Positions 2,511 to 61,611 of a DNA stretch of 64,000 nt are shown in pieces. The first letter of the stretch is position 1. Every line of letters begins with the position of its first letter. Origin of the DNA: a virus. The notes beneath the pieces were generated by a model that saw nothing but the letters and a program-made list of their open reading frames with translations, did not search any database and was not told where the DNA came from. The translations under genes and the position numbers were made by a program. The DNA lies in the IMG/VR virus record IMGVR_UViG_3300001683_000001, positions 1 to 64,000 of that record. The stretch is one strand, 5' to 3'.

Positions 2511-2565
2511 TTGTTCCACAGAACATGCGCGATTCTCGCGTGCGTGCGCGCACCCACGCGCGAGG
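2511..2565. repeat. bipartite element (palindrome + RY hairpin)
   Basis: TTGTTCCACAGAACAT, 8 bp, CTCGCG...CGCGAG. Confidence 0.9.
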
Positions 2566-4720: not shown

Positions 4721-4918
4721 ATGTTCGGGAGAACATCCTCGATTCCACATCGAATCTCAGCGAGTTTTTTCTCGTTAAATCATCGAAAAAAAGATGTTTT
4801 TTTCTCGTTTTGTCGGTGGCTTTCAATGTTCCACAGAACAAATCGTCGGAATCAGGCTGAAATCGGGGTTCTGTGGAACATTTCGGAATCCCTCGCGTGC
4901 GCGCGCGCGGGGGCGAGG
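4721..4918. repeat. cluster of three palindromes + RY hairpin
   Basis: Copies at 4721, 4826 and 4866; CTCGCG tract from 4892. Confidence 0.9.
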
Positions 4919-8785: not shown

Positions 8786-8880
8786 ATGTTCCGCAGAACA
8801 TGAGCGAACCTCGCGCGTGGGTGCGCGCGCCCGCGCGTAGGCGGGAGCGCAGGTGAGTGCGAGCGAGTGGGCGACGCTCT
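8786..8880. repeat. bipartite element
   Basis: ATGTTCCGCAGAACAT, 8 bp, CTCGCG. Confidence 0.9.
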
Positions 8881-8889
8881 CGGCGGGGC

Positions 8890-9180
8890 TTACTGTCCGC
8901 CGCCATAATGGAACCACATCTCAATCCAATCGGGGTTGTGAGCGCGGTCCAATCCGTCAAGACACTTCTTGCAGATGCGCCCTGCGGCGAGGGCCTCGTT
9001 CCATCCGTCGAAGTCCATCCTCACGATGCCGTCTTCCCAACCCTCGTTCTCGACCGAAAGGCCGAGGATGTTGCAGGTGTTATCCACTCGGATTGTAGTG
9101 ACTTCGTGAGTGTGGCTCACACCGTAGGAGAAGTGAATCTTCCCCTGTGGGGTGACTTGGTAAAGGAACCTCTCAGACAT
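8890..9180 (-). CDS. hypothetical protein (early cassette 1)
   Basis: GAGGTGG SD; TGAGATG junction. Confidence 0.6.
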   Translation of the reverse strand: MSERFLYQVTPQGKIHFSYGVSHTHEVTTIRVDNTCNILGLSVENEGWEDGIVRMDFDGWNEALAAGRICKKCLDGLDRAHNPDWIEMWFHYGGGQ

Positions 9181-9181
9181 C

Positions 9182-9391
9182 TCAATCCCACCTCATTTCA
9201 AGTGCTTCTCGGAGGGTGTGAAAGACAGCGATAAAATCCCCGTTGGCTTCAATAACCCACCATGTTGCTCCACCTATCGCGGAGCCGAGTTCTCGGTTCT
9301 GCTCGATGGTAGTTTGACCGCTTGCACTCACCCACACACCGGCCTGTGTCGAAGTGAAGGTTCCATAGGTTCCAATCTTGGTCCGGCTCAT
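9182..9391 (-). CDS. hypothetical protein (early cassette 1)
   Basis: GGAGGCGAACTGAGATG junction. Confidence 0.6.
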   Translation of the reverse strand: MSRTKIGTYGTFTSTQAGVWVSASGQTTIEQNRELGSAIGGATWWVIEANGDFIAVFHTLREALEMRWD

Positions 9392-9392
9392 C

Positions 9393-9938
9393 TCAGTTCG
9401 CCTCCAATCCTGTTAGTGTGTCGTCGCTCACCGAGTTATCTACGGTGGTGAAGATTGCTGACTTCCCTACTTGGATTGCCTCGATTGTCTGAGCGACTGT
9501 GTTGATGATGCCAGCCTTTGCCTCGACGATTGCCGCAGGGACGACGCGAGGGCGGAGGGAGTTCCGGTGGAGGGACACAGCGAGAGGGACGGTGACGAAG
9601 CAGACCTCGGTGTTGTAGCCAGCGGCCTCTGCCTTGTCGAGTAGTGCAACCACTCGCTCAAGGTTGGTTCCGGTAGTGTCGTAGAGGACGCTCTCGGTTG
9701 GGTTGGAGAAGACTCCATCCAACATCTCTGCGACTACTGCCTGTGACCATGCGTGGATTGCCTGAGGGTCCTTTGGGTTGTAGTCAGGGTGGGTCTTCTT
9801 GACCTCATCACAGTCGATGCGAGTGAAGGTTGGGAATCGGCGGGAAGCGACTGTGGATTTACCTGCTGCTGGTAGTCCCATCATCACGACGAACTTGCGC
9901 TCGGAGGGGGTCGCCGCCGGTTGCGTCTTGTAGTGCAT
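9393..9938 (-). CDS. P-loop kinase, zeta-toxin/AAA_33-like
   Basis: MGLPAAGKST, IDCDEVK, LYDTTG, RNxxRPRVVP; start set 31 nt from TTCATATA box. Confidence 0.75.
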   Translation of the reverse strand: MHYKTQPAATPSERKFVVMMGLPAAGKSTVASRRFPTFTRIDCDEVKKTHPDYNPKDPQAIHAWSQAVVAEMLDGVFSNPTESVLYDTTGTNLERVVALLDKAEAAGYNTEVCFVTVPLAVSLHRNSLRPRVVPAAIVEAKAGIINTVAQTIEAIQVGKSAIFTTVDNSVSDDTLTGLEAN

Positions 9939-9954
9939 GGCACTACAAGGCAGG

Positions 9955-10026
9955 GGTTCCCTATATGAATGGATAGGGTAAATCAATGCTTTTTACCCTC
10001 AATATCGCATTTTCTGACCACGCCGC
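9955..10026 (-). promoter_or_regulatory. class-I (putative early) ~70-bp promoter, copy 1
   Basis: 32 bp identical to 13097-13128; TTCATATA 31 nt before ATG. Confidence 0.75.
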
Positions 10027-10033
10027 GACCCCT

Positions 10034-10118
10034 CTCGCGTGAGGCGCGGTCGCGGACGCTCGCCCTCGCATGCGCGCGCACCCCCACGCGCGAGAACCGA
10101 CCATGTTCCACAGAACAT
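10034..10118. repeat. bipartite element
   Basis: CGCGAG, 8 bp, ATGTTCCACAGAACAT (10103). Confidence 0.9.
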
Positions 10119-15790: not shown

Positions 15791-16183
15791 ATGGCGAAGA
15801 CAGACCCGTTCGCTAAGTTCGCTCGCGCCCTCTCCAAGAGTGGGTCGAAGATGGGTCATAAGACCACTCCACACATCATAGACATCCTTGCTCACAGGGT
15901 CCTCAAGAACGCCAAGCGGCGCGCTCCCGTCCGCACCGGCGCGCTCCGCGCAAGCGGTCGTGTGGAGGCGGGGAGCAACGCCAACCAGCGCATCGTGGCC
16001 TTCGGGGGTGGCTACACCGGGGTCGAGTATGCGAAGGCTGTCGAGTATGGGAGATATTCCTACGCACCAGCGGCTCCACAGCCGTTCCTACGCCCTGCAT
16101 TCATCGAGGAAATGCGTGGAGTGCGTAGCAAACTCAAGGCCGCATTTCAGAAGGAACTTGACGACTTGGGTGTGTCCTACTAA
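15791..16183 (+). CDS. HK97 gp10-like neck/tail-completion protein
   Basis: AKRRAPVRTGALRAS, YAKAVEYG, PQPFLRPA. Confidence 0.85.
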   Translation: MAKTDPFAKFARALSKSGSKMGHKTTPHIIDILAHRVLKNAKRRAPVRTGALRASGRVEAGSNANQRIVAFGGGYTGVEYAKAVEYGRYSYAPAAPQPFLRPAFIEEMRGVRSKLKAAFQKELDDLGVSY

Positions 16184-17835
16184 TGGCCGAAGTCGAGGTG
16201 GAGAAGGGACCCACCTGTCGGCAAGCGGATGAGTCCTACAATGAGTGCGTTAGCCGGAAGGTCAGCGAACTGATTGGGACCGAGGGAATGGAGTCAGACC
16301 AAGCCATCGCCGCAGCATCTTCGATGTGCGAAACCATGTGTAGTGAGAAGGCCGAGGCAGATTCAGAATCGTCAAGAACCCCGACGAGGGAGGAAGACGG
16401 CATGAGCCACGCTCTTGAGTTAGAGAACCCAACAGTCATCACGGACAAATCCAAGTTTGATTCTATCAGCATTGAGCCTACTGAGGTCGAGGTGCATTAT
16501 CGCATAGTATCGCCCTTCACAGTCGTTGAGAAGACCAACAAGGCTGGCGACAACGATGTGACCGTGACGGGACCTATCTATGTCGGGAGCGACGAGGTTC
16601 TCGACAGGCATGGGGAACTCGTAGATACGACCGCCATCATGGCCGCTTGGGAGGAATACCGGAAGAACCCCGTCATCCTCTACAACCACTCCAAGACCTA
16701 CGGAGTCATAGGCAAGATGGAGAGGGTCAAGATTGGCGAGTTCAACGAGATGCAGGTCCCGATAGGAACCGCCATCATTGACGGTGGCGAGAAGGACATC
16801 GTGAGGAAGATTCGCAAGGGCTTCCTCAAGGCGTTCTCCATCGGCTTCATCGCTCGCGGGATGGTCAAGGTCTGCGACGACGACGACGAGTGCTATCTCA
16901 GATTCACCGACATTGATTGGCTTGAAACTTCAATCGTAGATGTTCCGGCAAGTCCTGACGCACTATTCTCGGTCGAGAAGTCAGTTCATCAGGTGAATGT
17001 TCCACAGAACATGAACGACGAATGTGGATGTGGAAACGAATGTTGCGATGGAAAAGAGAAGGAGATGATTGCGCCCGATGTCTTCACCAGCGAGGAAGAA
17101 GCCCTTGCGCGAGCAGGGGAGATTGGATGTGCAGGTGTTCATGGGATGGAAGACGAGGGTGGCTACACGGTTTTCATGCCCTGCTCTACACATGATGAAT
17201 ACGAATCTACGATTGCCTCGGCTAAGAGCGAGTCGAATAGCGCATCGCTCAATAACCCCCTCGCAGCACCCGTTGAGTCAATGACCGCCGATGAGATGGA
17301 AATGGAAGTCGCCAATGAACAGGTGATTGAGATGTCTGAGGCTCCCGTAGAGGAAGTCAAAGTGGACATGATAGAAGACACAATTGAAAGTAAGGCTGTC
17401 GTAGAGGACCCCGAAGAAATCGAGGCCCCTGAACTACCGAAGCCTCTCGATGTTCTCTTGGATGTCGCAACATCTCTCAAGGCGATTGACGAGCGACTAA
17501 CCGCCGTCGAGTCATCTATCACACCACCGGCAGACGCGCCGGAGGTTGCAGAACTCAAGGCCGCACTCGCTGAGAAGGATGATGCACTCGCTACCATCGC
17601 TCAGGAGAAGGCTACCCAAGATGCTCAGGACGCATACGAAGCAGACATAACTGCCCGCGTCCAAGAAGTCCTATCCTCCTACGGCGTAGAAGCATCGGCA
17701 GAGCGCAAGACCGCAACGCCCGATGAGAAAGCACCTTCCACAGACATCACACGATTCGACCCACAACCCGAAACAAGCAAGGGCATGAACGGCCTTGCTA
17801 ATTGGTTAGAGGCCAACCTAATCGCAAGAGGCTAA
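16183..17835 (+). CDS. HK97-type prohead protease with C-terminal scaffold region
   Basis: DRHGE, PVILYNH, FSIGF, ETSIVDVPA; acidic coiled-coil C-terminus. Confidence 0.85.
   Translation: MAEVEVEKGPTCRQADESYNECVSRKVSELIGTEGMESDQAIAAASSMCETMCSEKAEADSESSRTPTREEDGMSHALELENPTVITDKSKFDSISIEPTEVEVHYRIVSPFTVVEKTNKAGDNDVTVTGPIYVGSDEVLDRHGELVDTTAIMAAWEEYRKNPVILYNHSKTYGVIGKMERVKIGEFNEMQVPIGTAIIDGGEKDIVRKIRKGFLKAFSIGFIARGMVKVCDDDDECYLRFTDIDWLETSIVDVPASPDALFSVEKSVHQVNVPQNMNDECGCGNECCDGKEKEMIAPDVFTSEEEALARAGEIGCAGVHGMEDEGGYTVFMPCSTHDEYESTIASAKSESNSASLNNPLAAPVESMTADEMEMEVANEQVIEMSEAPVEEVKVDMIEDTIESKAVVEDPEEIEAPELPKPLDVLLDVATSLKAIDERLTAVESSITPPADAPEVAELKAALAEKDDALATIAQEKATQDAQDAYEADITARVQEVLSSYGVEASAERKTATPDEKAPSTDITRFDPQPETSKGMNGLANWLEANLIARG
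16997..17012. repeat. palindrome in prohead protease CDS
   Basis: ATGTTCCACAGAACAT encoding NVPQNM. Confidence 0.85.
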
Positions 17836-22626: not shown

Positions 22627-24834
22627 GTGGCTGATGACGCCAAACTCAAGGTCATCATCGAAGGCGATTCAAAGGCTCTCATCGCCGCTGTTGGGGCGGC
22701 ATCAGCCGCGACGGCATCAGGCGGCAAGGACATCAAAGGCTCTCTCGCTTCGATAGGGAAGGCATTCACCGTAATGGGAATCGCGGCGGTGGCGGCAGGG
22801 ACGGCAATCACAATCGGATTCGTGAAGAAGTCGGTGAATGCGTTCATCGAGTTTGAGCAAAGCCTGACCCGCATCAACGCTGTGATGACCGAACTCGATG
22901 CAACCCAACGACAGACTCTCCAACAGAGCATCCGCGACATCGCCGCCGAATCACAATTCACAGCCCGACAGGTCACGGACGCGGCGACCCAATTGGTCTT
23001 CGCAGGTATGGCCTATGACGACCTCATCGGTGACGAGGACAAAGGCATCACAGGTGCAGTATCAGCCCTCGTTGATTTCGCCATCGCCGCTGGAACCCCG
23101 GTCGAAACAGCCGCCGAGATTTCGATGGCCGCGCTGAGTGGATTCGGCTTGGAAGTCAAGGAGATGACGAGGGTCATGGATGTGATGATGACCACCTACA
23201 CCTCCGCCTTCGTGACGCTTGAGGAACTCGGTCAGACGATGAAGTTCCTCGCACCCACAGCGAGGGCCGCTGGTATCTCAATCGAGGAAGCCGCAGCAGC
23301 AGCGGGCGCACTCGGAAATGCGGGCCTAAAAGGGACTATTGCAGGGACCGGGTTGCGTATGTCTATCAACAAATTACTCTCTCCGACTGACGATGCCCGG
23401 AAGGTCATGGACGAACTCGGACTCTCCTTCTTCACACTCACTCCGCGAGGCGAAACAGCGCAAGTCGCGTTGCAGGGATTGTCCGGTTCCTTGCGCCAAT
23501 CCACACGCGAATTAGAGGCCACCAAGTTTGCCGTCGAAGCACTCAACAACGAACTCTCAGACCTTTCAATCGAACAGCAGAGGAACAGCCTCGCCATCGC
23601 TGAGATTCGACAGCGAGCCGCGCGTCAGGGTAGAACCTTGACTGACCAAGAAATCAAGACGGTCGAGAGGCTCCAAATGGCGAATGAGGACTTGAGCATC
23701 CAACAGCAACGACTCGGTATAGAGCAAGCGGTAGCGACGAAGGCACAGGAGAAGAACTCTAAAACGGTGGCTGACCAAAAGCGGCTATATGGTAGCCTCA
23801 ATCGAGAGGTTCAGATGCAGACCACAGGACTAACAAGCCTCGTTGATGTGATTAACCAATTGGAGGCGGCAGGTGCTACCACATCACAGGTCTTGGAGAT
23901 ATTCTCTGTGCGCGGTGGAACCGCCATCATGGCTCTCTTGGGACAGGCTGATGCCTTCCGAGATTTGACCGAGGCTAACTACGAATCACAGGGAGCGTTG
24001 GCGGCATTCATTGAGGAAATCAAGACCTCGGTAGCCTTCGCTATGATGCAAGTCAAATCGAACTTTGAAGAAACCCAATTGGTCATCGGTGAAATCTTCG
24101 CAGACCTACTCACGATGGATGGTGGGGTTGCCGAGGCGATGAACGGAATCGCGGAGAGTATTCGCGCTAACAAGGAGGATTGGAAGGACTTGGCTAAATC
24201 AATAGGCGACACCATCGTCCCGTTGCTTTTCGCAATACCCGCCCTCATCGACGGCATCACACGCGCATTCGCAAACATGAGGCCATTCCTCAATGTAATC
24301 GTAGGGCTGTTCAAACTTCTCGGAATCATTCTATGGCCCGTCTTCAAACTCCTTGAGGGAATCGCATGGGTAGTGGAAAAACTCACCGGCTCAGGCAAAG
24401 CAGGTAGCGTGGCTGCTTCGGCAGGTGCGGGGGTGGCAACAGGAGCCGCTATCGGTAGTATCATTCCGGGTGTCGGCACAGCCGTCGGAGCCGTTGTTGG
24501 AGGTGTTGCCGGAACCATCGGAGCGTTGCACGAAGGCGGAGTCACGACGGGGCCAAGTGTGAATCTCATTGGAGAGGCTGGCCCGGAGGCCATTATCCCA
24601 CTCGACAAACTTCCCCGAATTATCGCAGATGCCGGATATGTTCCACAGAACATGGCCGCATCCCCGCGCGGGGGGCCAGCGCAATCGGCAGGTGGATTAA
24701 CCATCAATTTCGGAAGCATCTCTATCTCAGGTGGAACCAACATGACGAGTGCATCAATTCGTGAAATCATGCGAACCGAGATGCCGAAAATCGTGAAGGA
24801 CTCCTACGCAAGTGGAGCAAGGGGAGTGGTCTGA
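22627..24834 (+). CDS. tape measure protein (TP901-type core)
   Basis: FEQSLTRINAV, LGQTMKFLAP, GLKGTIAGTGLR, GEAGPEAIIPL. Confidence 0.9.
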   Translation: MADDAKLKVIIEGDSKALIAAVGAASAATASGGKDIKGSLASIGKAFTVMGIAAVAAGTAITIGFVKKSVNAFIEFEQSLTRINAVMTELDATQRQTLQQSIRDIAAESQFTARQVTDAATQLVFAGMAYDDLIGDEDKGITGAVSALVDFAIAAGTPVETAAEISMAALSGFGLEVKEMTRVMDVMMTTYTSAFVTLEELGQTMKFLAPTARAAGISIEEAAAAAGALGNAGLKGTIAGTGLRMSINKLLSPTDDARKVMDELGLSFFTLTPRGETAQVALQGLSGSLRQSTRELEATKFAVEALNNELSDLSIEQQRNSLAIAEIRQRAARQGRTLTDQEIKTVERLQMANEDLSIQQQRLGIEQAVATKAQEKNSKTVADQKRLYGSLNREVQMQTTGLTSLVDVINQLEAAGATTSQVLEIFSVRGGTAIMALLGQADAFRDLTEANYESQGALAAFIEEIKTSVAFAMMQVKSNFEETQLVIGEIFADLLTMDGGVAEAMNGIAESIRANKEDWKDLAKSIGDTIVPLLFAIPALIDGITRAFANMRPFLNVIVGLFKLLGIILWPVFKLLEGIAWVVEKLTGSGKAGSVAASAGAGVATGAAIGSIIPGVGTAVGAVVGGVAGTIGALHEGGVTTGPSVNLIGEAGPEAIIPLDKLPRIIADAGYVPQNMAASPRGGPAQSAGGLTINFGSISISGGTNMTSASIREIMRTEMPKIVKDSYASGARGVV
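24638..24653. repeat. palindrome in tape measure CDS
   Basis: ATGTTCCACAGAACAT encoding YVPQNM. Confidence 0.85.
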
Positions 24835-29894: not shown

Positions 29895-29995
29895 CGCGCG
29901 TAGAGCGTGTCGAGGCCATCTGCGGTCAATTGGGGCCTCTAACCGACTCGACACGCTCTATGGGGCCTCTATTGGTTCAGAATCGGCAAGAATCT
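29895..29995. repeat. intergenic family-2 repeat (representative; also ~8656, 11657, 32383, 34110, 38872, 51455, 52700, 58620, 60870)
   Basis: TAGAGCGYGTCGA...TCRACRCGCTCTATGGSSCCTCTATTGGTTCAGAATCGGCAAG. Confidence 0.75.
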
Positions 29996-34096: not shown

Positions 34097-34224
34097 ACGA
34101 ATCTGACCCGATTAGAAGCCCATAGAGCGCGTCGGAGATGCTCAGGGGGTATCGGGAGGGGCAAGAGCGACAACAACCTCTACGACCCCTTCATTGAAGA
34201 CGGTGGGGCATTTCCTCCCTGTTC

Positions 34225-37509: not shown

Positions 37510-37563
37510 ATGTTCTGTGGAACATGCCCGGTCCTCGCGTGAGCGCATGCGCGCGCGCGTGAG
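37510..37563. repeat. bipartite element
   Basis: ATGTTCTGTGGAACAT, 8 bp, CTCGCG. Confidence 0.9.
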
Positions 37564-38062: not shown

Positions 38063-38881
38063 ATGAGCAACACAAACCCCCTCTGCACCTACAACGACAT
38101 GGGTGACTTCGGCAAGCGGGACTACGGCTCGGTGGATGAATACGAAGCCAGCGATTCTTGCCTGACGGTCATTCACAATAGGACGACCTCGACCGGCGAC
38201 CAACCTGCTAACATCGGAGTCCTTGCAGACTACTGTGTGGAGGCGTTCAGGAACCTCGGAATGTCCGAGCGCAGAATCGACGAGCAAGTGATTCGCCTCA
38301 CCTTCCTCCGACAAGCCGACCAAGAGGACTTCAACGAGGAAGCGAACACGGCTGGCGACGAATGGTGTGGGGTGTGTAATTCTTCCCAATTAGGAAGCAT
38401 GACCTTTGAACACCACATCTTCCTAATCACCAACGGAGGTCACGAAGCCAACGACGACGAGATAAACTTGGAAGAAGTCATGCGGTGCTTGACTCACGAA
38501 CTTGTTCATGCCGCACAGGCCGCGAAGGACACCCTCCACTACACATGGTTCCCTGTGAGGGGAGTGTGCAAGATTCGCTTCATGGACGGCAACGGGATTC
38601 AGAAGGCTTGGGACGATGGCGTGGGAAGCCTCGACTACTACGACAGAGCATGGGAGTGGGAGGCATACGCCAAGCAGACCAACCTGATGCTGACCATCTT
38701 CGACACGACCTCTATCCGAATCACGAATCTCGTCGTGGAAAACATCCGCCCCGAAACCCGCGAGGATATGTTCGTGGGAGCATGGAACGCCTTCATCGGA
38801 GGCGAGGTAGTCAGCCAAGCATCTGAGCAGGGACAGTTCCTCCGAACGGCCCTATGCTCCCGCCGCGCCCGTTCTTGCTGA
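38063..38881 (+). CDS. zincin metallopeptidase, paralog of 31435-32208
   Basis: THELVHAAQ..D.LHY...R.WEWEA. Confidence 0.75.
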   Translation: MSNTNPLCTYNDMGDFGKRDYGSVDEYEASDSCLTVIHNRTTSTGDQPANIGVLADYCVEAFRNLGMSERRIDEQVIRLTFLRQADQEDFNEEANTAGDEWCGVCNSSQLGSMTFEHHIFLITNGGHEANDDEINLEEVMRCLTHELVHAAQAAKDTLHYTWFPVRGVCKIRFMDGNGIQKAWDDGVGSLDYYDRAWEWEAYAKQTNLMLTIFDTTSIRITNLVVENIRPETREDMFVGAWNAFIGGEVVSQASEQGQFLRTALCSRRARSC

Positions 38882-39019
38882 TTCCGGGTCAATAGAGGCC
38901 CCATAGAGGCCGTCTGACGCTCAGGACGCCCCGATACAGCCCTAATGCCCTCAACGCGCTCTGCACCCGCTCCCTCGCACTCGCCTCTGCGAGCGCACAT
39001 CTGCGCCCACCCGCCCCTA

Positions 39020-43371: not shown

Positions 43372-44571
43372 ATGAAGGTCCCATACTTGTCGGCTTCTCG
43401 ATTGAAACTTGCACAGGATTGCACCTTTGCCTACGCTGAGAAATACGGCTCAGGGTCGAAGGATGCTTTCACGGCTAAGATGGTCGGTGAGCATCGCAAC
43501 AATATGCAAGCGGCGAGGAACGGAACCAATCTCCATAACGCCCTTGAGGAATGGCGGCGACCCAACCCCAAGACGGGTAGAGTTCGTCGCCCCCTGTTCA
43601 AAAAACTCGTAGAACTCTACGACAAGGAGTGCGCTCGGAACGAGGTGGATTTCAATGTCTATGAAGACGGCAAAGAGATGCTCACACGATGGTTCGCCAA
43701 GCGAGGTGTGACCACCGTCAAGATTCTCGATGTGGAGCAATCGTTAGGCACTCACAGCGCACCCTTCATCCTCCCCCTCGGCACACCAATCTTCGGCTTC
43801 ATTGACCTCATTGTCGAGCATGACGATGGGACCATCGAACTGATTGACTACAAATCGCAGAGGAAGCCAATCAAGCAAGAGGAAGCAGACTCCGATATAC
43901 AGGCAGGTATCTATCTCGCTGTGGCGTCTGAGATATGGCCTGACCGACCTCTACGATTCACCTTCGACCTGCTCAGATACGGAACCATGACGACCGTGTG
44001 GAGTGACTCCAAAATCAAGTCGTTCAAGACATGGCTTCATGGTCAATACGAATGGCTATCCAATCTGACCGACCCTCAACCCACCATCGGGAACGGATGC
44101 AAGTGGTGTCCCTATGTCGAACTATGTCCAACAGCCCAAGACCTGATTCAGAATGGCTCTTGGGATTTGGTCGTGGGGGATGACCCTACGAGCCTCGATA
44201 GGGATGCGATGCTCTCGACCCTTGCCGCCGTCAAAGCGGCGAAGTCAATCCTCGACAAGAAGCAGAGAGAGATGACTCAGAACATCAAGGATGAGTGGTT
44301 CGACTCCTTCGCAAGTGGAGAGGTGATTACCACCGACAATTGGAAGGTGTCTTTCGATGATAGGAAGCGCACCGAGTTCATCCCTTCCGAGGTTCAACGC
44401 TTGGTCCCTCCGGGCGTCTTCGGGCAGATGGTGGGATTGACTAAGACCGCTGTTGAACGGGTGTTGCCGATACTCCCCGAAGATGTAGCGGAGCAGGTTC
44501 GTGCGAGCGCAATAGTGAAGCCCTACCGCGCTCTGACTATACAGCGTAGTAGCGATGCCGACACCCAATGA
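43372..44571 (+). CDS. PD-(D/E)xK RecB/Cas4-like exonuclease
   Basis: LSASR, GTNLH, GFIDL...IDYKS, QxxxY, CKWCPY...CP. Confidence 0.85.
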   Translation: MKVPYLSASRLKLAQDCTFAYAEKYGSGSKDAFTAKMVGEHRNNMQAARNGTNLHNALEEWRRPNPKTGRVRRPLFKKLVELYDKECARNEVDFNVYEDGKEMLTRWFAKRGVTTVKILDVEQSLGTHSAPFILPLGTPIFGFIDLIVEHDDGTIELIDYKSQRKPIKQEEADSDIQAGIYLAVASEIWPDRPLRFTFDLLRYGTMTTVWSDSKIKSFKTWLHGQYEWLSNLTDPQPTIGNGCKWCPYVELCPTAQDLIQNGSWDLVVGDDPTSLDRDAMLSTLAAVKAAKSILDKKQREMTQNIKDEWFDSFASGEVITTDNWKVSFDDRKRTEFIPSEVQRLVPPGVFGQMVGLTKTAVERVLPILPEDVAEQVRASAIVKPYRALTIQRSSDADTQ

Positions 44572-44947
44572 AGACTCTGAACAGGACTCATCTGAAGACT
44601 CTGAACAGGACTCATCGAAAGGGCCGCGTCGAGTGCCTTCATCGAAATACGGAACCCGCCGATTCGGACGCATGGGGAAGACCGACGGTCGGAATGTGAA
44701 GCGACTGTGGAAGGCCATGATTATTGCTGGTGCGGTGTTCCCAAATGGAGGGCCTCTGACGACGAGTCAGATAGTCGAACTACCCAACCAGCCATTTGAG
44801 ATTCACAGGCTCACCAACCACCTCGCAAAGAAGCCTCACCTGTTCATGTGCGCCGGGACTGAACGAGTAGCCGGACTCGATGGTCGAACTCGCTACCCGC
44901 AGAAGACATGGCTGGCCCATCCCGAAGCCTACGACGACACCTCCTGA
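44555..44947 (+). CDS. putative wHTH protein
   Basis: LTTSQI...RLTNHLAK; N-terminal 24-bp tandem duplication (EDSEQDSS x2). Confidence 0.5.
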   Translation: MPTPNEDSEQDSSEDSEQDSSKGPRRVPSSKYGTRRFGRMGKTDGRNVKRLWKAMIIAGAVFPNGGPLTTSQIVELPNQPFEIHRLTNHLAKKPHLFMCAGTERVAGLDGRTRYPQKTWLAHPEAYDDTS

Positions 44948-44970: not shown

Positions 44971-45103
44971 CTCGCGCGCCCTCGCGTGCGCGAGGCAAAC
45001 CTCGATTTCAGCCCAATTTCGCAAGTCCCTCACGCGCGCGCGCATGCGCTCACGCGAGGACCGGGCATGTTCCACAGAACATTTCCCCTGTTCGGGGGAA
45101 CAC
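44971..45103. repeat. bipartite element with two palindromes
   Basis: Copies at 45067 and 45088 (CTGTTCGGGGGAACAC). Confidence 0.9.
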
Positions 45104-45171
45104 GGACTTGAACCGGAGGCTGTTTTCGACTTCCCGTTTGATTCAAGACGGTGGGAGATTGCCGGGTGGTT

Positions 45172-46613: not shown

Positions 46614-49280
46614 ATGACGCGCGTCCCGTTCCTGATTGTGTCCATAGACTACACCGAGGACCCGACCTTCCTCACGCACCTGCGGGTGAAAGGACTCGAT
46701 GGTCAGAACCATGTTTTGACGGTCGAGAATTGTGTCCCTCGGTTTTGGACTGAGAAGAACCCGTCCAGCATTCCGAACCTCCCTCCGTTGGTGAAGTCAT
46801 GGAAGCCGTCCGGGTTGCGGAGCGTCACCGGCGCAGAACTGTTTGAGGTTCGTGTGGAGAACCTCTCAGACCGGCGTGAGATGAAGGAGTTCTTCTACCC
46901 CCATTACTCAGCAGATGTAGCATGGCGGTCGCTGGTCAGATGGATTTACGATTGGACCGCTGTGATTGATGTGGATGAGGCCGCACTCAAGGGTCCCAAC
47001 AATCTCCGTCCTCTGCACATCACACCGAGCGAAACTGACTACTCGGAGTTCACTCTCGATGTCCTGTGGTTCGACATCGAAACCGAGGATTCTCTCGACA
47101 TGAAGACCTCACCCAAGCGAGTCGTCAGCATCGCCATCTTGGACAGCGTGACGGGCATTCACGAAATCGGCACGACCTGTCCCACCAGCGAACGACAGGT
47201 GCAGAGATTCCTCGCATCTCAAGAGGCATTGGAGTCTATCGTAGAACACACGGCCCCTATCCCTCCCATCCCTACCGACAAGGTGGTTGTGAAGTCGTTC
47301 TCCTTCGATGACCCCGACACCAACGAGGCGGCTCTCCTATGGTGGTTCAAGGAGAGGGTCGAGGCATTGGACAGGGACCTACTTGGAGGACAGAACATCC
47401 TCGGCTACGACATCCCCTATCTCAAGAACAGGAGCCGGAGAATGCGACGGGAGATGAGTCGTCGCTACTACGATTCTGTGCCTGTCTTTCACCGGTTCCC
47501 GAATCTCGATTCGATTACTCGACGACCCTTATTCGATTCTAAGCGAGCGTATGCCGAGCAGGTGCGTGGGGAACTCACATCAGGTTCTCTCGTTTGGATG
47601 TCTGAGCAGGTGCTTGGCTATGGCAAGGTTCCGAGGACTCGCATCACCGAACTCATGGTGCGCGACCCCATGATGCTCGCCATCTACAACGCTTGGGATA
47701 ATGTCTGCGTTGCTCGGTGTATGGACGAACTGAATCTCATCCCATTCTACCTCGCCAAAGCCGCCTTCAACAGTTCCCTGATTCAGAACATCCACTCCAA
47801 CATGATGCTCATCGAGGACACGATGGGACACCTGCTGATGAGGCAGAACATGGTGATGCCTTCCCTCGATGTCGTGCGCGACCGGATGGAGGTCGCAGAG
47901 GTAGAGGGAGGCTTCGTCATGGAGAACCCAAGCGGGGTCTTTCTGAACGCCTTTGAACTCGACAACGCGACCGAATATCCGGCGCAGATAATCAACGGCA
48001 ATTTCTGTCCCTCTACCATCGTCAGTAAGGACGACTACCCCGACGGGTTCCCCTTCCCTGTGACCAGCACTCCATCAGGTCGCTACTACCGTCGTGACCG
48101 TGACGGAATCATCCCCGGAGTCCTGAGGACCCTGACGGCTCAACGCCGACAGACTCAGAGCGAGATGAGGAAGGCCCTCGCTGACGATGATGATGAGATG
48201 GCGAACATCCTCGACATGAAGCAGAGGGTGATGAAGGAATCGAGTAATTCGTTCTACGGCGTCATGGCGTCCGGTTCGACCGAGAAGACGAGGGGCCGAC
48301 CCTTCCGGCTCGTCAATCCCGCCATCGCCTCGGACATCACCGAAGGGGCGCGACTTCACAACGAGTGGAATCGGAAGAAAATCGAATCAACGATTCTACT
48401 GTTCTCAGCCGAAGGAATCGAGCCGAATGTTCCACAGAACATGCCCGACCTCGCGGGCGCGCACGCGAGGCTCGACGGATTTCCACTTGAGTTCCGAGTG
48501 ATTGGACAGGACACAGATTCGTGCAAGGTGTTCATCTCCAACCAGCCCGAAGCCGAGGAAGCGATTCGTCCATTCACCGAGTCCGACATCACATCTTCGG
48601 CCAACCTATTATGCCTCATACTGAACGGAACCTACGACGAGTTCGTGCAGACCACATACGGCATCGAACGCAACGAGATGTTGATGGTCAAGCCGGACGC
48701 ATACTACGAGAGATATTTCGCATGGGGAGTGAAGAAGCGATATGCCTATCGAGAGTTCAACGGCAAGGATGGATTCCGGGGAGTCGAGATACGCCGGTCG
48801 TCTGTTCCACAGGTAGTGAAGACAGCCCAACACCGAGTATTCAAATCAATCCTGAATGGATGCGACAAGCGGGAACTCAACGAGATTCTCAGGGACATCC
48901 ACGATACCATCCTCGATGTAGAGAAGACACCCAATATCCACTTCGGACAACCGTTCGGAATCAAGACGGCAGGGACCCAAGCACACAAAGCCGCGATGTG
49001 GTCGAACGACCATCTCGACACCGACTTCGACATAGGCGACAAGCCGACGCTGTATGTCGCCAAGTCTGCTTCGACATCCCTTCCCTCTAACCGAGTAGTC
49101 GCTATCGTGTTTGGGGAGGACCCGTCGTCGTTCGGAATCATGGTAGATAGAGAGAAGTCGTTCGCCAAACATTTCACGAACTCACAATCTTGGTCAGGCA
49201 TCCTCGGTGCATTCAACACCTCATGGGAATCTGCGCTTGCAGGTATGAGCCAATCCTCCCTCGTAGAGTGGTTCACATGA
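46614..49280 (+). CDS. polB: family B DNA polymerase
   Basis: FDIET, NILGYDIPYL, YNAWD, DNATEYP, KxxxNSFYG, DTDS, KKRY; start fixed by promoter 46583. Confidence 0.92.
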   Translation: MTRVPFLIVSIDYTEDPTFLTHLRVKGLDGQNHVLTVENCVPRFWTEKNPSSIPNLPPLVKSWKPSGLRSVTGAELFEVRVENLSDRREMKEFFYPHYSADVAWRSLVRWIYDWTAVIDVDEAALKGPNNLRPLHITPSETDYSEFTLDVLWFDIETEDSLDMKTSPKRVVSIAILDSVTGIHEIGTTCPTSERQVQRFLASQEALESIVEHTAPIPPIPTDKVVVKSFSFDDPDTNEAALLWWFKERVEALDRDLLGGQNILGYDIPYLKNRSRRMRREMSRRYYDSVPVFHRFPNLDSITRRPLFDSKRAYAEQVRGELTSGSLVWMSEQVLGYGKVPRTRITELMVRDPMMLAIYNAWDNVCVARCMDELNLIPFYLAKAAFNSSLIQNIHSNMMLIEDTMGHLLMRQNMVMPSLDVVRDRMEVAEVEGGFVMENPSGVFLNAFELDNATEYPAQIINGNFCPSTIVSKDDYPDGFPFPVTSTPSGRYYRRDRDGIIPGVLRTLTAQRRQTQSEMRKALADDDDEMANILDMKQRVMKESSNSFYGVMASGSTEKTRGRPFRLVNPAIASDITEGARLHNEWNRKKIESTILLFSAEGIEPNVPQNMPDLAGAHARLDGFPLEFRVIGQDTDSCKVFISNQPEAEEAIRPFTESDITSSANLLCLILNGTYDEFVQTTYGIERNEMLMVKPDAYYERYFAWGVKKRYAYREFNGKDGFRGVEIRRSSVPQVVKTAQHRVFKSILNGCDKRELNEILRDIHDTILDVEKTPNIHFGQPFGIKTAGTQAHKAAMWSNDHLDTDFDIGDKPTLYVAKSASTSLPSNRVVAIVFGEDPSSFGIMVDREKSFAKHFTNSQSWSGILGAFNTSWESALAGMSQSSLVEWFT
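48427..48470. repeat. complete bipartite element inside polB
   Basis: ATGTTCCACAGAACAT, 7 bp, CTCGCGGGCGCGCACGCGAG. Confidence 0.9.
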
Positions 49281-49411
49281 ACGGTGACGACATAGACGAT
49301 TGGTCGGATAAGCACATCGGCAGTTTGGGATTGATGAGGACGGTTATCGGGTTCGTCAATCTTATCATCGGGCTGGTCATCATGTCGAAACTATTCGGGT
49401 GGTTGGGATGA
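49277..49411 (+). CDS. 44-aa membrane peptide
   Basis: ATGA overlap with polB; hydrophobic C-terminus. Confidence 0.45.
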   Translation: MNGDDIDDWSDKHIGSLGLMRTVIGFVNLIIGLVIMSKLFGWLG

Positions 49412-49887
49412 ATCCCTCCACTCCCTCACGACGCACCCAAGTCTATCGCCTTCTTCGGAATGAGTGTGGCTTCACGCACCATCAGGCGCGCCATCTCATC
49501 ATGCGTCACTTGAGCAATCTCGGTGACTTCCGCAACATCTTCTACAAAGGACTCAAGGCTGACCGAGAGGTGTGGTTAGAGGCTGCTCAACCGATAGCAA
49601 GTTTGAGTCTGCGAGATGACGCGCTTGAGGCAGGGCGTTCCATCCTGAATCAATGCTGGCCTTCCTACCGCCTCACAGGGGCCACAGGACCGGGGCCTGA
49701 GATGCCTTTCACCTGTGCCTCCTTTGCGGCGAGGATGGTGAAAGAGATTCAGGGGTTCAACCCCACTCAGGGGCGAATCCTGTGGAGTCAGATTGAACTC
49801 ATCCTCAGGCGTGAAGAACGGGATGCAGAAGCCGCTTGGATAGACAGGATGATTCCGACCTATCTGAAAGTCAAGGGGGTGCTGTGA
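49408..49887 (+). CDS. hypothetical protein
   Basis: ATGA overlap. Confidence 0.5.
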   Translation: MNPSTPSRRTQVYRLLRNECGFTHHQARHLIMRHLSNLGDFRNIFYKGLKADREVWLEAAQPIASLSLRDDALEAGRSILNQCWPSYRLTGATGPGPEMPFTCASFAARMVKEIQGFNPTQGRILWSQIELILRREERDAEAAWIDRMIPTYLKVKGVL

Positions 49888-51352: not shown

Positions 51353-51595
51353 CACACTCTTGCTCCCATCGCAGGGAGGGGGGCGCGGCGTTGGGAGCCG
51401 TTCGATTCTCACGCCCCCCTTCCAAACTCAATTTCACAGGCTCACAGGCGGCGCGCGTAGAGCGCGTCTGTGATGCGTGGTCTGTATCGGGACTCCTGAG
51501 GACTTCAACGCGCTCTATGACCCCTTCATTGACCCGTATTCGGCAAGGGTGGTGGGTCCCTCTCCTTCAAGACGGTGGGAGGGATAGCGTGAGGT

Positions 51596-51820
51596 ATGAC
51601 CGACAGAGATGGTGAGCGAATGGATGTAATCGAGCAGCGACTCGGAGAGGTCTTGGAGAGGCTCCGAGATTTGGAGCGACGGCTCACCTCGATAGCATCT
51701 GCCGCGAACCCTACTGTCGTCAGCATTCGACATCCAAACCAGCGGACACTATGGTCGCCTCATCAGGAGCGAACCGTAGGCGAGGAAGTTCTCAAGGGTG
51801 AGGACGATGAAGCCTTCTGA
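51596..51820 (+). CDS. small coiled-coil protein
   Basis: ATG 30 nt after promoter 51566. Confidence 0.55.
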   Translation: MTDRDGERMDVIEQRLGEVLERLRDLERRLTSIASAANPTVVSIRHPNQRTLWSPHQERTVGEEVLKGEDDEAF

Positions 51821-52697
51821 CCTGTTGGGAAGCAAGGCCACCCACCAACCTCTCCGAGCGTGGTTGAAGACATGGAGCAACGGCGTGAGGCCAACACCGA
51901 ATATCGTGATAGTCACAGGTGCGAGTGGGGTAGGCAAGACGACGCTCGTCACCACGCTATCTGAGGCGGTTGGACTTCACCCGCAGATGTGCGAGGTCGG
52001 GAACCTCAAGGCATCACTCGCCCAAGCCAATACACCCACCTTCCTCGGTCAGCGTAGGTTGGCTATCTTGGATGACTCGTCGTTCCTCTCCCGCCGTGAG
52101 TGGAAGGACTTGGAGAAGACCCTCTCCCTCAACCCCATCCCACTCGTCCTCATCGCTGAGAGCGAGCGCGATGTGGCGTGGCCCATACGCAGGGGTGCGC
52201 TGGTGATTCGGACACCACCCCCGACCCGACAGAACCTCATCGAACTGCTGGCTCTCCACACCGACCGACTCGGCCTTCCACACGACGAGGCTGATTGGAA
52301 TCAGATTGCTGATGTCGCCTCGACTTGGCGAGCCGCGATTCTGAGGCTTCGGACTTCCCCACACACAGGCGGGCGCGCCATCGCGCGCGAGGGAGCGCGA
52401 TGTTCTGCGGAACATTCGCACGATGCTGGAACCACCGAGGAACGGAGAATCCTCGCTGGTCATCACGCTGGTCGAACCATCTCGGTTCACCCGATGGCTA
52501 TCCTCTCAGCCGCCGAGTTCAACGGGGCGAATCCGAATCATGTGGAAGTCGGGAATCGCCTCCACTCTTGGTCGTGGGAGTCGGACGACCTGACGAGGGT
52601 CGCCCACGACTACCTGACCACTCTGCGAGCCTCGACCCAAGACCGAGTTCCATTCCGTCAGCGAACCCTGCGTGGTTCCGTGAAGCGACTCAGGTGA
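51807..52697 (+). CDS. divergent/truncated RFC large subunit-like ATPase
   Basis: P.DLLG...L..WL..W, GASGVGKTT, ILDD, PLVLI. Confidence 0.6.
   Translation: MKPSDLLGSKATHQPLRAWLKTWSNGVRPTPNIVIVTGASGVGKTTLVTTLSEAVGLHPQMCEVGNLKASLAQANTPTFLGQRRLAILDDSSFLSRREWKDLEKTLSLNPIPLVLIAESERDVAWPIRRGALVIRTPPPTRQNLIELLALHTDRLGLPHDEADWNQIADVASTWRAAILRLRTSPHTGGRAIAREGARCSAEHSHDAGTTEERRILAGHHAGRTISVHPMAILSAAEFNGANPNHVEVGNRLHSWSWESDDLTRVAHDYLTTLRASTQDRVPFRQRTLRGSVKRLR
52374..52415. repeat. bipartite element inside the RFC-L-like CDS
   Basis: CGCGAG, 8 bp, ATGTTCTGCGGAACAT (52400). Confidence 0.85.
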
Positions 52698-52794
52698 ATC
52701 CTTGCTGATTCTGAGCCAATAGAGGGGCCATAGAGGCCGTTGAACCCCTCAGAGGTCCCGATACGGAACTTTGGCCCTCCATGCGCTCAGGCAC

Positions 52795-53795: not shown

Positions 53796-54052
53796 TGTCT
53801 GACCGAGGCAACCTCTACGACCCCAAGCGGGGGAAGTTCGACATCAGGGAAGCAGAGAAGTCACTTGGCCTCCATGATAGCGACGACCGGAAGGAGATGA
53901 TTCGCCTGTCTGTCGTGACTGACCTCCTATGCGCTCATGCAGGTATCACGGACGAACAGGTGCAGATGGCCTATGAGCAACGCATCAAGACCTATGTCGC
54001 TGAAACGGTAGCGACCTTGCGTTCTATCGTTGGAGATGACCCGAATGAGTGA
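53795..54052 (+). CDS. hypothetical protein
   Basis: TGATG coupling. Confidence 0.55.
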   Translation: MSDRGNLYDPKRGKFDIREAEKSLGLHDSDDRKEMIRLSVVTDLLCAHAGITDEQVQMAYEQRIKTYVAETVATLRSIVGDDPNE

Positions 54053-54057
54053 TGACC

Positions 54058-55269
54058 ATGCAGTTCAGTATCGAAGACTTCGATGATGTATGCAACCACT
54101 TCGGATTCGACACCTATCCACGCACAGTCGGCAACCCTCGGCAGAGCCTCGTCTATGCGAGTGAAGAAGCCTACCTCAAGTTCTCCAAATGGAACGGGAA
54201 CTCCCCCTGCTTCATCAGCACCGGGGGCTACTCCAACATCCAATTCGACATAGGCGGCAAGCAATCTCCGAGGACAATCCACCACACTCTGACCTTCTTC
54301 GACTTCGACCACGAAACGAAGCCTGAGAATGCCTTCGCGGATGCACAGCGATTGTCTGAGTTCCTTCGGGAGATGGACATCGCTCATTGGGTGCAATACT
54401 CAGGGTCGAAGGGCTACCACCTGTTCATCATCCATGCTCCGACCAAGTTCAAGTTCGACTATCGAGATGGGAGCAACGAGGCTCTCAAGCGGATTCTCCA
54501 TCAGACCCAAGACTACCTCCGTCAGACCATCGGCCTCAACACCCTCGACGAGCAGACGATGGGCGACCCCAAGCGACTGTGCCGATTCCCATACTCACTC
54601 CATGTGGATAGACATGGGAAGGCATCGGGTCATCATGCACTTCCGGTTCCGGTTGAGGAACTCGATGTGGTGAATCACGACGACATCGTGATGCGCGCAT
54701 GTTCTGTGGAACATCCCGAATTGCCTGAGATTATCGGACGACGACTGACCCTCCGAGAGTTCATCTCAGAATTGGGCATCCGACTCGACGCACCCGAAAC
54801 AAAGATTCGGCCTGTCGTCGGAGGTGACTTCGACTTCGGGGATTCTGATAAGGAGGCGTTCCGATTCATCGCGTCACTTGAGCATAGGTGCATGGGCGTG
54901 GTGAATGAACTCAGACGACGCAACCCACCACACAAAGCGAGAGTCTTCGCCGCCCTGTTCGCCAAGACACTCGGCCTTCCTCAATCGGCGTTTGAGAAGG
55001 TGTGGATGGAGATGGGAACCAGCATGGGATATGTGGACTTGCACAACCACGAACACCGAGCCTATCAGATGGCGACCATCTTCGACAACCCGAACTACCA
55101 TTCCTTCCCCACTTGCACCACCCTCAAGGCGAACGGATGCTGTGTGGGTGAGATATGCCCTCGCTATGCTGAGATGGAGCGCATCGACTATCAACCGAAG
55201 CAAGTGGAGCGCAAGTGGTCGAGCAAGAGTGGGAGCAACGAAGACGCCGAAATATGGGAAGATGTTTGA
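54058..55269 (+). CDS. priS: archaeo-eukaryotic primase, PriS fused to PriL C-terminal Fe-S domain
   Basis: FFDFD, SGSKGYH, D..RL.RFP.S.H; C...PPH...CxTL...CC....CP. Confidence 0.85.
   Translation: MQFSIEDFDDVCNHFGFDTYPRTVGNPRQSLVYASEEAYLKFSKWNGNSPCFISTGGYSNIQFDIGGKQSPRTIHHTLTFFDFDHETKPENAFADAQRLSEFLREMDIAHWVQYSGSKGYHLFIIHAPTKFKFDYRDGSNEALKRILHQTQDYLRQTIGLNTLDEQTMGDPKRLCRFPYSLHVDRHGKASGHHALPVPVEELDVVNHDDIVMRACSVEHPELPEIIGRRLTLREFISELGIRLDAPETKIRPVVGGDFDFGDSDKEAFRFIASLEHRCMGVVNELRRRNPPHKARVFAALFAKTLGLPQSAFEKVWMEMGTSMGYVDLHNHEHRAYQMATIFDNPNYHSFPTCTTLKANGCCVGEICPRYAEMERIDYQPKQVERKWSSKSGSNEDAEIWEDV
54699..54714. repeat. palindrome in primase CDS
   Basis: ATGTTCTGTGGAACAT preceded by ATGCGCGC. 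Confidence 0.85.
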
Positions 55270-58512: not shown

Positions 58513-58708
58513 GGATGGAATCCTCCCCTCGCGGGGCGTGCATGACCGCGCTCTCGCTCACACACACGGACACACCCGCGAGAGCGAGCGCAGGGAGCGC
58601 GCAGGGAGCGCGTCAATCTCCCATCGGGGCCTCTAACCCATTCAACGGCCTCTATGGCCCCTCTATTGGTTCAGAAACACCAAGAACTTCGTCTGTGAGA
58701 GATAGACC

Positions 58709-60501: not shown

Positions 60502-60867
60502 ATGCCGCCGAAACGAATCCCGAAGCCACTCAAGAAGGCCATCCTCGGTTCGCTATTTTCCAGCACTATGAATGACTCCCTTCCCTCTGCTGCCGTAGCC
60601 GACCGAGTGAATAACAACCCACAAGTTCCAGCGAGGATGATGAAGACCCCGAAGCAAATGGCGTATCTACTCAATCAGATGATACGGGAATATCCCGGCA
60701 TCATCGAAACTCAGTTCCTCAATCGGAACGGAATGAGCCGACATGGAGTCAGGAGATTCCGCAAGGGCTACCTCCCAATCAAGGGCGTCACACTTGCCGA
60801 AGCCGAGCAAGCCGTAGGGGTCACTCGGAAGAAGCAGAATCAGGCCAAGAACCCCGATTCAGAATAA
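60502..60867 (+). CDS. basic putative wHTH protein
   Basis: AILGSL...SAAVADRV...TPKQMAYLL. Confidence 0.5.
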   Translation: MPPKRIPKPLKKAILGSLFSSTMNDSLPSAAVADRVNNNPQVPARMMKTPKQMAYLLNQMIREYPGIIETQFLNRNGMSRHGVRRFRKGYLPIKGVTLAEAEQAVGVTRKKQNQAKNPDSE

Positions 60868-61033
60868 ACGCCCGTAGAGCGCGTCGAGGGTATTTGGGCT
60901 GTATGGGGGCCTCGGAGGGCATAGACGCGCTCTATCACGCCGTAGGGAGGGTGTATGGGGCTGTTCAACGCCGCCTCCTACCCATCGAATCTCACAGAAT
61001 GGTGAATAGCCTCAAGAGTCCCTCAACAATCCA

Positions 61034-61333
61034 ATGGACACCATGATGGATTACAGCATCGTTTGGACAACGGCAGGGAAGGAGATGGTCGGCCACGACA
61101 TTCACGGTGACGAACTCATCAAGGTCACTACGGGTGGAACCCATTGGGATTTCATCTTCATTCGTCATGGAGGATTTGGGAAGGTCAGAGTAGGAGCAGG
61201 TTGTCGCTACAACCCTCTCGCTATGATTGAGCAGATGCACACCCATCTATTGAACGAGGACAGCATTGAAAACGACATCGAGATGAGCGACATCATTGAC
61301 TTCTCAAAATCCCTCAGACGCAGGTGGGGATGA
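61034..61333 (+). CDS. hypothetical protein
   Basis: TGAATAG box ~31 nt upstream. Confidence 0.55.
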   Translation: MDTMMDYSIVWTTAGKEMVGHDIHGDELIKVTTGGTHWDFIFIRHGGFGKVRVGAGCRYNPLAMIEQMHTHLLNEDSIENDIEMSDIIDFSKSLRRRWG

Positions 61334-61611
61334 TGCTCACTTGGGTCAGAGCAATTGGAGCCGCGACCCATCTATTCGCATACGGCTTGAATATGGAACT
61401 CCTTGCTCATCTCGTTGAGCATGAAGACAGGTGGGTGATGAACGCTGGCGGGAGGCAATTCACGGTAGCAGGGAATGGCTGTGCCGACCCTGTTGCATTC
61501 ATCGAGCAGATGGTATCTCCGACTTTGCCGAAGACCATTCACATCGAGGATTCGTGGATAGTTCAGTTCTACCCTCCCAATGGTGAATCGTGGGAAGTTT
61601 GGGGCGAGTGA
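61330..61611 (+). CDS. hypothetical protein, weakly similar to the upstream neighbour (G.GC..P.A.IEQM)
   Basis: ATGA overlap. Confidence 0.5.
   Translation: MMLTWVRAIGAATHLFAYGLNMELLAHLVEHEDRWVMNAGGRQFTVAGNGCADPVAFIEQMVSPTLPKTIHIEDSWIVQFYPPNGESWEVWGE

Follow-up and report, generated by a model that had tools for sequence, protein, structure and literature searches.

A short DNA palindrome, TGTTC-N4-GAACA, recurs across the genome of an uncultured virus (IMG/VR record IMGVR_UViG_3300001683_000001; 80,646 bp, with direct terminal repeats), of which positions 1 to 64,000 were analyzed as one stretch, here called the window. Five copies in the window are read in frame within genes, among them polB, which encodes the family-B DNA polymerase. 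Our analyses suggest that the 14- to 16-bp palindrome is probably the site of a predicted dimeric, sequence-specific DNA-binding factor, most probably one encoded by the virus and coevolving with its sites, and that the sites form a genome-wide network selected at the level of DNA. Such sites would be kept wherever they fall, open reading frames (ORFs) included, and would there be spelled by synonymous codons and conservative replacements. From the comparison of viral sequences, we infer that a protein dimer binds the sites, that this dimer is viral, and what it does; our leading guess is that it regulates or silences transcription globally from dispersed operators, with an architectural, segregation, or replication role about as likely.

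Copy number and architecture

The palindrome is strongly enriched. The 16-mer ATGTTCCACAGAACAT (ATGTTC-CACA-GAACAT) has 28 matches in the window at up to 3 mismatches, against 0.56 expected from shuffles, and across all 80,646 bp of the genome the 14-mer TGTTC-N4-GAACA has 27 copies, with 0.1 expected from shuffles and 0 copies of the direct, mirror, and everted control patterns. Noncoding DNA, which makes up 13.7% of the genome, holds 20 of the 27 sites. Most intergenic copies consist of the core, 8 nt, and then an alternating CG tract with CTCGCG at one end and CGCGAG at the other; the repeat unit measures 14 to 16 bp for the core and 43 to 45 bp with the tract. At some bipartite copies, core and tract are predicted to form twin hairpins in single-stranded DNA (z = -2.4 to -3.7), and the core-only copy at 16997 has no significant single-strand fold (z = -1.2). 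Loci outside the well-supported genes include the following.

2511..2562, + strand: core (1 mismatch) and tract, inside the doubtful ORF 2393-2707
4721..4915, no strand assigned: three cores (4721, 4826, 4866) and tract, all within one large intergenic region and shortly before the promoter motif at 4929
8786..10118, no strand assigned: two inverted bipartite elements that bracket a minus-strand three-gene cassette
37510..37562, + strand: typical intergenic bipartite copy, with core, 8 nt, tract, and then the cassette promoter (z = -3.7)
45008..45102, + strand: intergenic copy with tract, 8 nt, core, and a second palindrome (45088); the promoter motif at 45142 follows about 60 nt downstream

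A first-pass annotation of the DNA had placed the copy at 2511 inside an early run of ORFs; the ORF in question is weak (no homologs, a codon score of 10.8, and an isoelectric point [pI] of 11.4), and this copy is probably intergenic. The cores at 4721-4881, all within 160 nt, surround a T/A-rich stretch with two TTTTTTCTCGTT repeats in a genome of 55.7% G+C, and the locus 4721-4915 may be a control region or origin-like. A related 2.1-kb metagenome fragment (L087) carries, at its positions 880-1730, the same two inverted bipartite elements and promoter as window positions 8786-10118, with one different minus-strand gene in the place of the three-gene cassette; a pair of elements shared around different cassettes suggests that the elements mark points of cassette exchange. 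In this fragment, the arms of both cores are kept and their centers differ, and the CG tract has grown to about 190 nt, which suggests that the tract behaves like a hypervariable microsatellite.

In-frame copies within genes

The five in-frame copies use two orientations and different reading frames; the coding signal is in the same frame on both sides at all five, and four are perfect 16-mers. The tract accompanies the core in polB and in the AAA+ gene, and the copies in the protease, tape-measure, and primase genes are core only.

46614..49280, + strand: polB, family-B DNA polymerase (Pfam DNA_pol_B and exo domains; 73 homologs; 888-aa relatives in the same cluster)
48427..48442, + strand: perfect core in polB, read N-V-P-Q-N-M
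48450..48469, + strand: CG tract CTCGCG...CGCGAG in polB, 7 nt past the core, read L-A-G-A-H-A-R (twin hairpins, z = -2.4)
16997..17012, + strand: core only, read N-V-P-Q-N-M, in the linker that follows the S78 protease domain in the protease/scaffold ORF 16183-17835
24638..24653, + strand: core only, read Y-V-P-Q-N-M, in the tape-measure gene 22627-24834, within its variable C-terminal part
52372..52415, + strand: tract, 8-nt spacer, and core (52400-52415, center TGCG), read ...AREGARCSAEH, in the AAA+ clamp-loader-like gene 51798-52697
54699..54714, - strand: core only, read C-S-V-E-H, center TGTG on the + strand, in the primase-polymerase gene 54049-55269

The element in polB, whose true start is probably the ATG at 46614 (the promoter motif at 46583 lies 31 nt before it), reads in full N-V-P-Q-N-M-P-D-L-A-G-A-H-A-R and lies between motif B and motif C (DTDS), where the first-pass annotation had located it. 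The readings that it gave for the other genes (NVPQNM at 16997, YVPQNM at 24638, CSVEH at 54699, and CSAEH at 52400) were likewise reproduced; the AAA+ ORF, which it described as RFC like, resembles RFC weakly.

Each host protein was aligned with homologs from 5 to 34 relatives. PolB is about 10 to 12 aa longer than relatives with 62 to 65% identity, and the excess falls exactly at the element; throughout the family, the loop that links motifs B and C is hypervariable. The linker had been estimated to be about 25 aa longer than in typical PolBs; the element accounts for about 10 to 12 aa of it and the family-wide variable loop for the remainder. The corresponding region exceeds that of three relatives by 9 aa in the tape measure and that of five relatives by 7 aa in the AAA+ protein, each time in a variable segment. 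The length change is 0 to 1 aa at the protease copy and 1 aa at the primase copy, which suggests that these two sites were written into existing sequence rather than inserted. At all five copies the gain is smaller than the full element, and all five lie in variable segments. The proposal that the peptides are lineage-specific loop insertions agrees with the length gains of PolB, the tape measure, and the AAA+ protein (7 to 12 aa) and is not supported for the protease and the primase.

In the AlphaFold model of PolB (mean predicted local distance difference test [pLDDT] score, 87.7), the score drops below 50 at residues 1-15 (an overextended N terminus), 334-338, and 623-634. The last of these segments, QNMPDLAGAHAR, is the element peptide; it forms the loop between strands 616-619 and 638-648, just before DTDS, and in the model is a low-confidence surface loop. 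Four variants of the same lineage (90 to 98% PolB identity) all keep the insert and NVPQN, and the residues beside NVPQN vary among close variants (for example, MPDLAGAHAR to TASLTRARAR).

An ATG stands directly 3' of the palindrome in the protease ORF (16997-17015), also in the sister viruses G008 and G006, where the protease domain meets a Cys-rich, scaffold-like C-terminal part; it may be a nested internal start.

Palindromes of related viruses and selection on DNA

TGTTC-N4-GAACA itself has 0 copies in ten relatives at 49 to 62% PolB identity. A de novo palindrome count found that six relatives, from one part of the family, each have a 5-N4-5 palindrome of their own.

G008 and G006: TGTTG-N4-CAACA, 34 and 32 copies
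G003, G009, and G014: TATTG-N4-CAATA, 15, 18, and 15 copies
G010: TATCG-N4-CGATA, 15 copies

Shuffled sequences have at most 0.23 copies of these palindromes, and direct, mirror, and everted controls have 0 to 2. The copies are mostly intragenic and usually read [VI]-[DE]-x-[ND]; the palindrome often has six bases per arm (TGTTGA-N2-TCAACA), and no CG tract adjoins the palindromes of these six relatives. G+C content across these viruses runs from 37.7 to 55.8%. No comparable dispersed motif was found in G011, G012, or G013: TATAAC-N6-GTTATA in G011 was rejected because it looks like intergenic promoters, and counts of GGTCC/GGACC were rejected as a network motif because collagen-like repeats are their source. 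A distant relative with 27% PolB identity (G015, IMGVR_UViG_3300029288_003882; L041, L152-L156) has 13 perfect 10-bp palindromes, GGTGATCACC, one per roughly 2.5 to 11 kb over 84 kb, and may represent an independent dispersed-palindrome network.

Selection on the DNA was tested with the pair G008 and G006 (89.7% nucleotide identity). Within and around their sites, identity is 98.4% for the arms, 85% for the four bases of the center, and 90% for the flanks. In the 18 intragenic sites, the third codon positions within the arms are identical at 72 of 72, against a background of 82.1% (Fisher p = 1.2e-6), and the central third positions, at 16 of 18, resemble the background. The arms are thus under purifying selection at the DNA level in these relatives, in which the synonymous-site conservation called for by the first-pass annotation was found.

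Many sites occupy orthologous codons across specificity classes, with both arms changing symmetrically, as at the N terminus of PolB.

G008: GTT GTT GAC ATC AAC A
G009: GTT ATT GAA GTC AAT A
G010: GTT ATC GAA GTC GAT A

The window virus and G013 encode the same class of PolB N-terminal peptide (VIDVD and VIEID) with nonpalindromic codons, and the idea that intragenic palindromes are by-products of conserved peptides was rejected for this reason. The view that the constraint acts on DNA and not on peptide also agrees with the two orientations and different frames of the window copies and with the persistence of NVPQN beside changing neighbors.

Conserved arms around a free center, symmetric covariation, and the 5-N4-5 geometry together point to a dimeric protein that binds double-stranded DNA. 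An RNA-level hairpin that affects termination, processing, or translation would instead have the core fold into a 6-bp stem closed by a 4-nt loop and the tract into a GC hairpin, which both sequences allow. We consider this very improbable: sites occur in both orientations relative to transcription, both arms are selected symmetrically whatever the strand, and the core-only copy at 16997 lacks a significant fold; moreover, the 6-N2-6 form in relatives leaves a loop of 2 nt, which a dimer site in double-stranded DNA would seem to fit better.

Proposed change of specificity in the window lineage

In the PolB tree, the window virus is sister to G008 and G006, and G003 lies outside (support, 97 to 98); on this placement, the TGTTC specificity is derived, by a change from G to C at position 5 of the half-site. 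In the usual frame, this change turns an Asp or Glu codon into one for Leu, Pro, His, Gln, or Arg, which would explain why only 1 of 16 mapped intragenic positions of G008 has a site in the window virus. The one shared position is the protease linker, where NVPQNM (window virus) and GVEANM (G008) stand in the same alignment columns and each virus spells the palindrome of its own genome; the G003 site is a few codons off.

We propose that the palindrome network is ancestral in one part of a magrovirus-like family. The conserved [IV]-[DE]-x-[ND] peptides in which the old sites lay would not have accommodated a switch from T(G/A)TTG to TGTTC, and those sites would have been lost. The network would then have been rebuilt mainly in intergenic DNA, as a core phased 8 bp from a CG-alternating, hairpin-prone tract, and also in five tolerant protein loops. 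In polB and the AAA+ gene the tract stands at the canonical 7 to 8 nt, which makes an origin base by base unlikely; these core-plus-tract copies probably arrived as blocks, by insertion or gene conversion.

The bipartite copies could also be read as a selfish miniature mobile element of the Rickettsia palindromic element (RPE), miniature inverted-repeat transposable element (MITE), or REPIN kind, whose in-frame landings in loops were tolerated and whose DNA is itself unselected. The recurrence of core, 7 to 8 nt, and CG hairpin with a conserved spacer and center would suit such an element, as would its twin-hairpin potential, the 7 to 12 additional aa in loops of PolB, the tape measure, and the AAA+ protein, its absence from relatives at up to 64% PolB identity, and the copies that flank swapped cassettes. 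We give this explanation little credence: the protease and primase copies add 0 to 1 aa, and insertion of a 16-nt core would shift the reading frame; the protease site matches the position of a different palindrome in a sister virus; and the homologous palindromes of relatives are under purifying selection, with free centers and covariation. No strong Pfam match (E < 3e-6) to a transposase, integrase, or HUH protein is among the matches listed for the 79 ORFs, and no copies above chance occur in other IMG/VR contigs or in 185,579 species genomes. The exact core had 20 single, unrelated matches in IMG/VR, at chance level. The core-plus-tract unit found one true relative in JGI metagenomes, L087, and none other above chance; in the species genomes it had seven single matches, in unrelated bacteria and at chance level, a scatter that argues against a host source for the element.

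A binding-site network thus remains our preferred reading. In a bolder form, which we advance tentatively and think rather doubtful, the palindromes would constitute a clade-wide, undescribed system of cis elements, in which evenly dispersed 14-bp palindromes are kept in essential ORFs by selection on synonymous codons and the half-site drifts base by base together with a noncanonical viral factor. If so, the function of the system might be one without a described viral counterpart, such as chromosome organization or the licensing of replication or packaging, and the window virus would record a specificity switch that forced the wholesale relocation of sites to intergenic modules and protein loops.

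Promoters and site spacing

A 16-nt motif, TTCAAGACGGTGGGAG (variants TTGAAGA and TTCATAA), is followed by N14 and ATG, with the next ATG at +30 to +32, in at least 12 cases.

Window positions of the motif: 4929, 21247, 34194, 35970, 39153, 41197, 45142, 46583, 51566, and 52971
Further genome positions: 73581 and 74186

Judged by sequence, it fits a TATA-like box with a leaderless start, that is, a conserved promoter class, and its phasing corrects several ORF starts, including that of polB to 46614. With a separate, well-phased promoter motif present, the possibility that the palindromes are themselves promoters was rejected.

Gaps between sites are more even than expected: their coefficient of variation (CV) is 0.56 to 0.84 in seven genomes, against 0.92 to 0.96 under random placement, with p values of 0.002 (G008), 0.015 (G014), 0.054 (G009), and 0.078 (window virus). 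The selection for spacing suggested by the first-pass annotation thus finds agreement in all seven genomes, weakly so in the window genome alone. Its related suggestion that intragenic copies fill what would otherwise be the longest gaps was not significant (p = 0.10 to 0.24), although two of the five do split the largest and the third-largest gap.

Even spacing (p = 0.002 to 0.08 in four genomes) bears on a second class of explanation, in which the sites bind protein in an architectural or replicative role, as a dispersed centromere or clamp-loading sites (parS/ParB, or N15 SopB like), origin boxes, or compaction anchors. The lack of a fixed promoter geometry, the three cores that flank the AT-rich, origin-like stretch at 4721-4881, and the 13 evenly spaced GGTGATCACC sites of the distant G015 point the same way. 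One site per transcription unit would, however, space sites just as evenly, and 15 to 34 origins or centromeres per 80 kb would be unprecedented. The matches listed for the 79 ORFs include no strong Pfam match to ParB, ParA, or Orc1/Cdc6, and the AAA+ ORF is only weakly RFC like. As an explanation of the whole pattern, we regard this role as somewhat unlikely.

Search for the binding factor

The specificity of the palindromes changes stepwise along the viral tree, which favors a binder encoded by the virus. Searches for candidates by a matrix of phyletic patterns, by Pfam at E ≤ 1, by aligning five candidate families, by pI, and by two look-ups in the Atlas gave negative results or weak leads.

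Several observations weigh against the preferred reading as a whole. Three candidates that resemble winged helix-turn-helix or helix-turn-helix (HTH) proteins (44555-44947, 60502-60867, and 49399-49887) do not covary with palindrome specificity, and a single gene, 61324-61611, tracks the palindrome-bearing genomes in its presence and encodes an acidic protein without a known fold; its pattern was scored in palindrome-bearing relatives whose contigs span the region, which that of G006 does not. The synonymous-site test concerns sister viruses, the window lineage being covered by peptides and the 2.1-kb fragment L087. The conserved CACA/TGTG center and the spacer would also fit recent copy-and-paste of a longer repeat. 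Finally, the cores stand at no fixed distance from TTCAAGACGGTGGGAG (three of them lie about 95 nt before the start, others elsewhere), which leaves a classical operator role unproven.

The negative search for a viral binder would be expected if a host factor, such as a transcription factor, nucleoid protein, or defense component, read the palindromes and each virus mirrored its own host; the wide range of G+C content (37.7 to 55.8%), which implies different hosts, is compatible with this as well. Specificity nevertheless shifts by single half-site positions along the PolB tree, as for a coevolving viral protein, and the bipartite element is not above chance in species genomes, so that we consider a host factor unlikely.

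Two adjacent small paralogous genes at 61034-61611 share a GxGCxxP…ΦΦE motif. The gene at 60502-60867 encodes a basic 121-aa protein with HTH-like look-alikes, and its homologs in nine relatives have an additional C-terminal segment resembling a ribbon-helix-helix (…ITVNLP…) that is missing in the window virus.

Comparison with known systems

The closest parallel to a network of binding sites is offered by the stoperators of Cluster A mycobacteriophages (L5 and Bxb1), tens of 13- to 17-bp sites that are found genome wide, both intergenic and intragenic, and whose consensus varies among related phages and coevolves with the phage's own DNA-binding protein (PMC6550527, PMC9283540). The palindromes described here are likewise short, dispersed, intergenic and intragenic, and virus specific in consensus. 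They too occur far above chance (27 copies against 0.1 in the window virus and 15 to 34 against at most 0.23 in relatives), and their arms (TGTTC, TGTTG, TATTG, and TATCG) differ among viruses and covary at orthologous codons. Several HTH-like or basic small proteins are encoded, and none covaries with palindrome specificity. Stoperators differ in that they lack symmetry, follow the direction of transcription, and bind a repressor that acts as a monomer, whereas the sites in this family are 5-N4-5 and free of orientation; in addition, the host of the window virus is probably archaeal, and the sites of its relatives lie mostly in ORFs and are conserved to the codon.

Scattered palindromes of about 13 to 16 bp on a replicon, with a dimeric binder and some intragenic or promoter-distant positions, are also known as the centromere repeats bound by N15 SopB, the RK2 KorB operators, and parS. 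These resemble the present sites in size and dispersal; they differ in number (4 to 12 sites, against 15 to 34 in the window family) and in their recognizable ParB-family protein, a protein of the ParB/SopB family being absent from the strong Pfam matches listed for the 79 ORFs.

RPEs are selfish insertions of 100 to 150 bp that decay and are not selected as DNA. As in that case, unrelated essential genes here carry a repeated palindrome as in-frame coding sequence, in more than one frame and at tolerated surface positions. The unit is smaller (14 to 16 bp, or 43 to 45 bp with the tract), two of the five copies bring no gain in length, and the equivalents in sister viruses are synonymously conserved and covary. 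Four of the five copies are perfect, NVPQN is invariant, and 72 of 72 third positions in the sister arms are identical, none of which is expected of unselected, decaying DNA. The likeness to RPEs drawn in the first-pass annotation (for such elements in protein-coding genes, see PMC1166351 and PMC1458961) hence extends to the loop length gains in three genes and not to selfish decay, given the selected, covarying palindromes of relatives.

The cassette swap between L087 and window positions 8786-10118 recalls another system. The PeSL cassettes of T4-type phages are repeated intergenic modules of promoter and stem-loop that flank variable genes and serve as points of cassette exchange. PeSLs are confined to intergenic DNA and, unlike the sites described here, are not protein-binding palindromes within ORFs.

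Overlapping codes, in which a DNA-binding site is laid over coding sequence, have rarely been documented this cleanly: the same codons of PolB and other core genes carry a symmetric palindrome, and viruses without the system encode the same peptide nonpalindromically. If read correctly, the network could provide a handle on gene regulation or genome organization in viruses of uncultured marine archaea, and it would explain the lineage-specific loop insertions of a replicative polymerase as a side effect of selection on DNA. As naturally occurring specificity variants, the palindromes of the relatives could also help to trace the cognate protein.

The virus genome and further repeats

The window has a G+C content of 55.7% and 0 tRNA genes. 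A proteome-wide Pfam/PHROG screen recognized genes for replication (family-B polymerase, Prim-Pol type primase, AAA+ clamp-loader-like proteins, helicases, and a PD-(D/E)XK nuclease) and structure (portal, HK97-type capsid, S78 prohead protease, tape measure, and large terminase), as well as an HNH endonuclease; its listed strong matches include no transposase, integrase, or ParB. In protein searches, the sole matches of PolB among cultured phages were haloviruses, at about 25% identity, and a nucleotide search with polB against cultured phages gave no match. Part of the 73 metagenomic PolB relatives come from Tara Oceans (marine), and many lie on contigs of 76 to 86 kb. Magroviruses have genomes of 65 to 100 kb and encode their own PolB, clamp loader, archaeo-eukaryotic primase, helicase, and nucleases, with an HK97-type head module distantly related to that of haloviruses (PMC5434244). 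The gene set of the window virus fits this published description, a likeness by description only, and the virus appears to be an uncultured marine archaeal-type tailed virus of a magrovirus-like family. The magrovirus papers searched make no mention of palindromes, internal sequence repeats, or cis-regulatory elements.

A giant collagen-like gene runs from 61829 in the window to genome position 70339 and encodes 2,836 aa with Gly-X-Y repeats; it has no palindrome site with a CACA-type center and forms the largest site-free gap, of about 9 kb. A second repeat family of about 70 to 90 bp, with arms ...GTAGAGCGCGTC... and ...GACGCGCTCTATGG..., fills many of the intergenic regions that have no palindrome.

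Second repeat family, window positions: 8627-8728, 11642-11731, 29895-29992, 34117-34189, 38874-38961, 51452-51549, 52701-52788, 58623-58686, and 60869-60941

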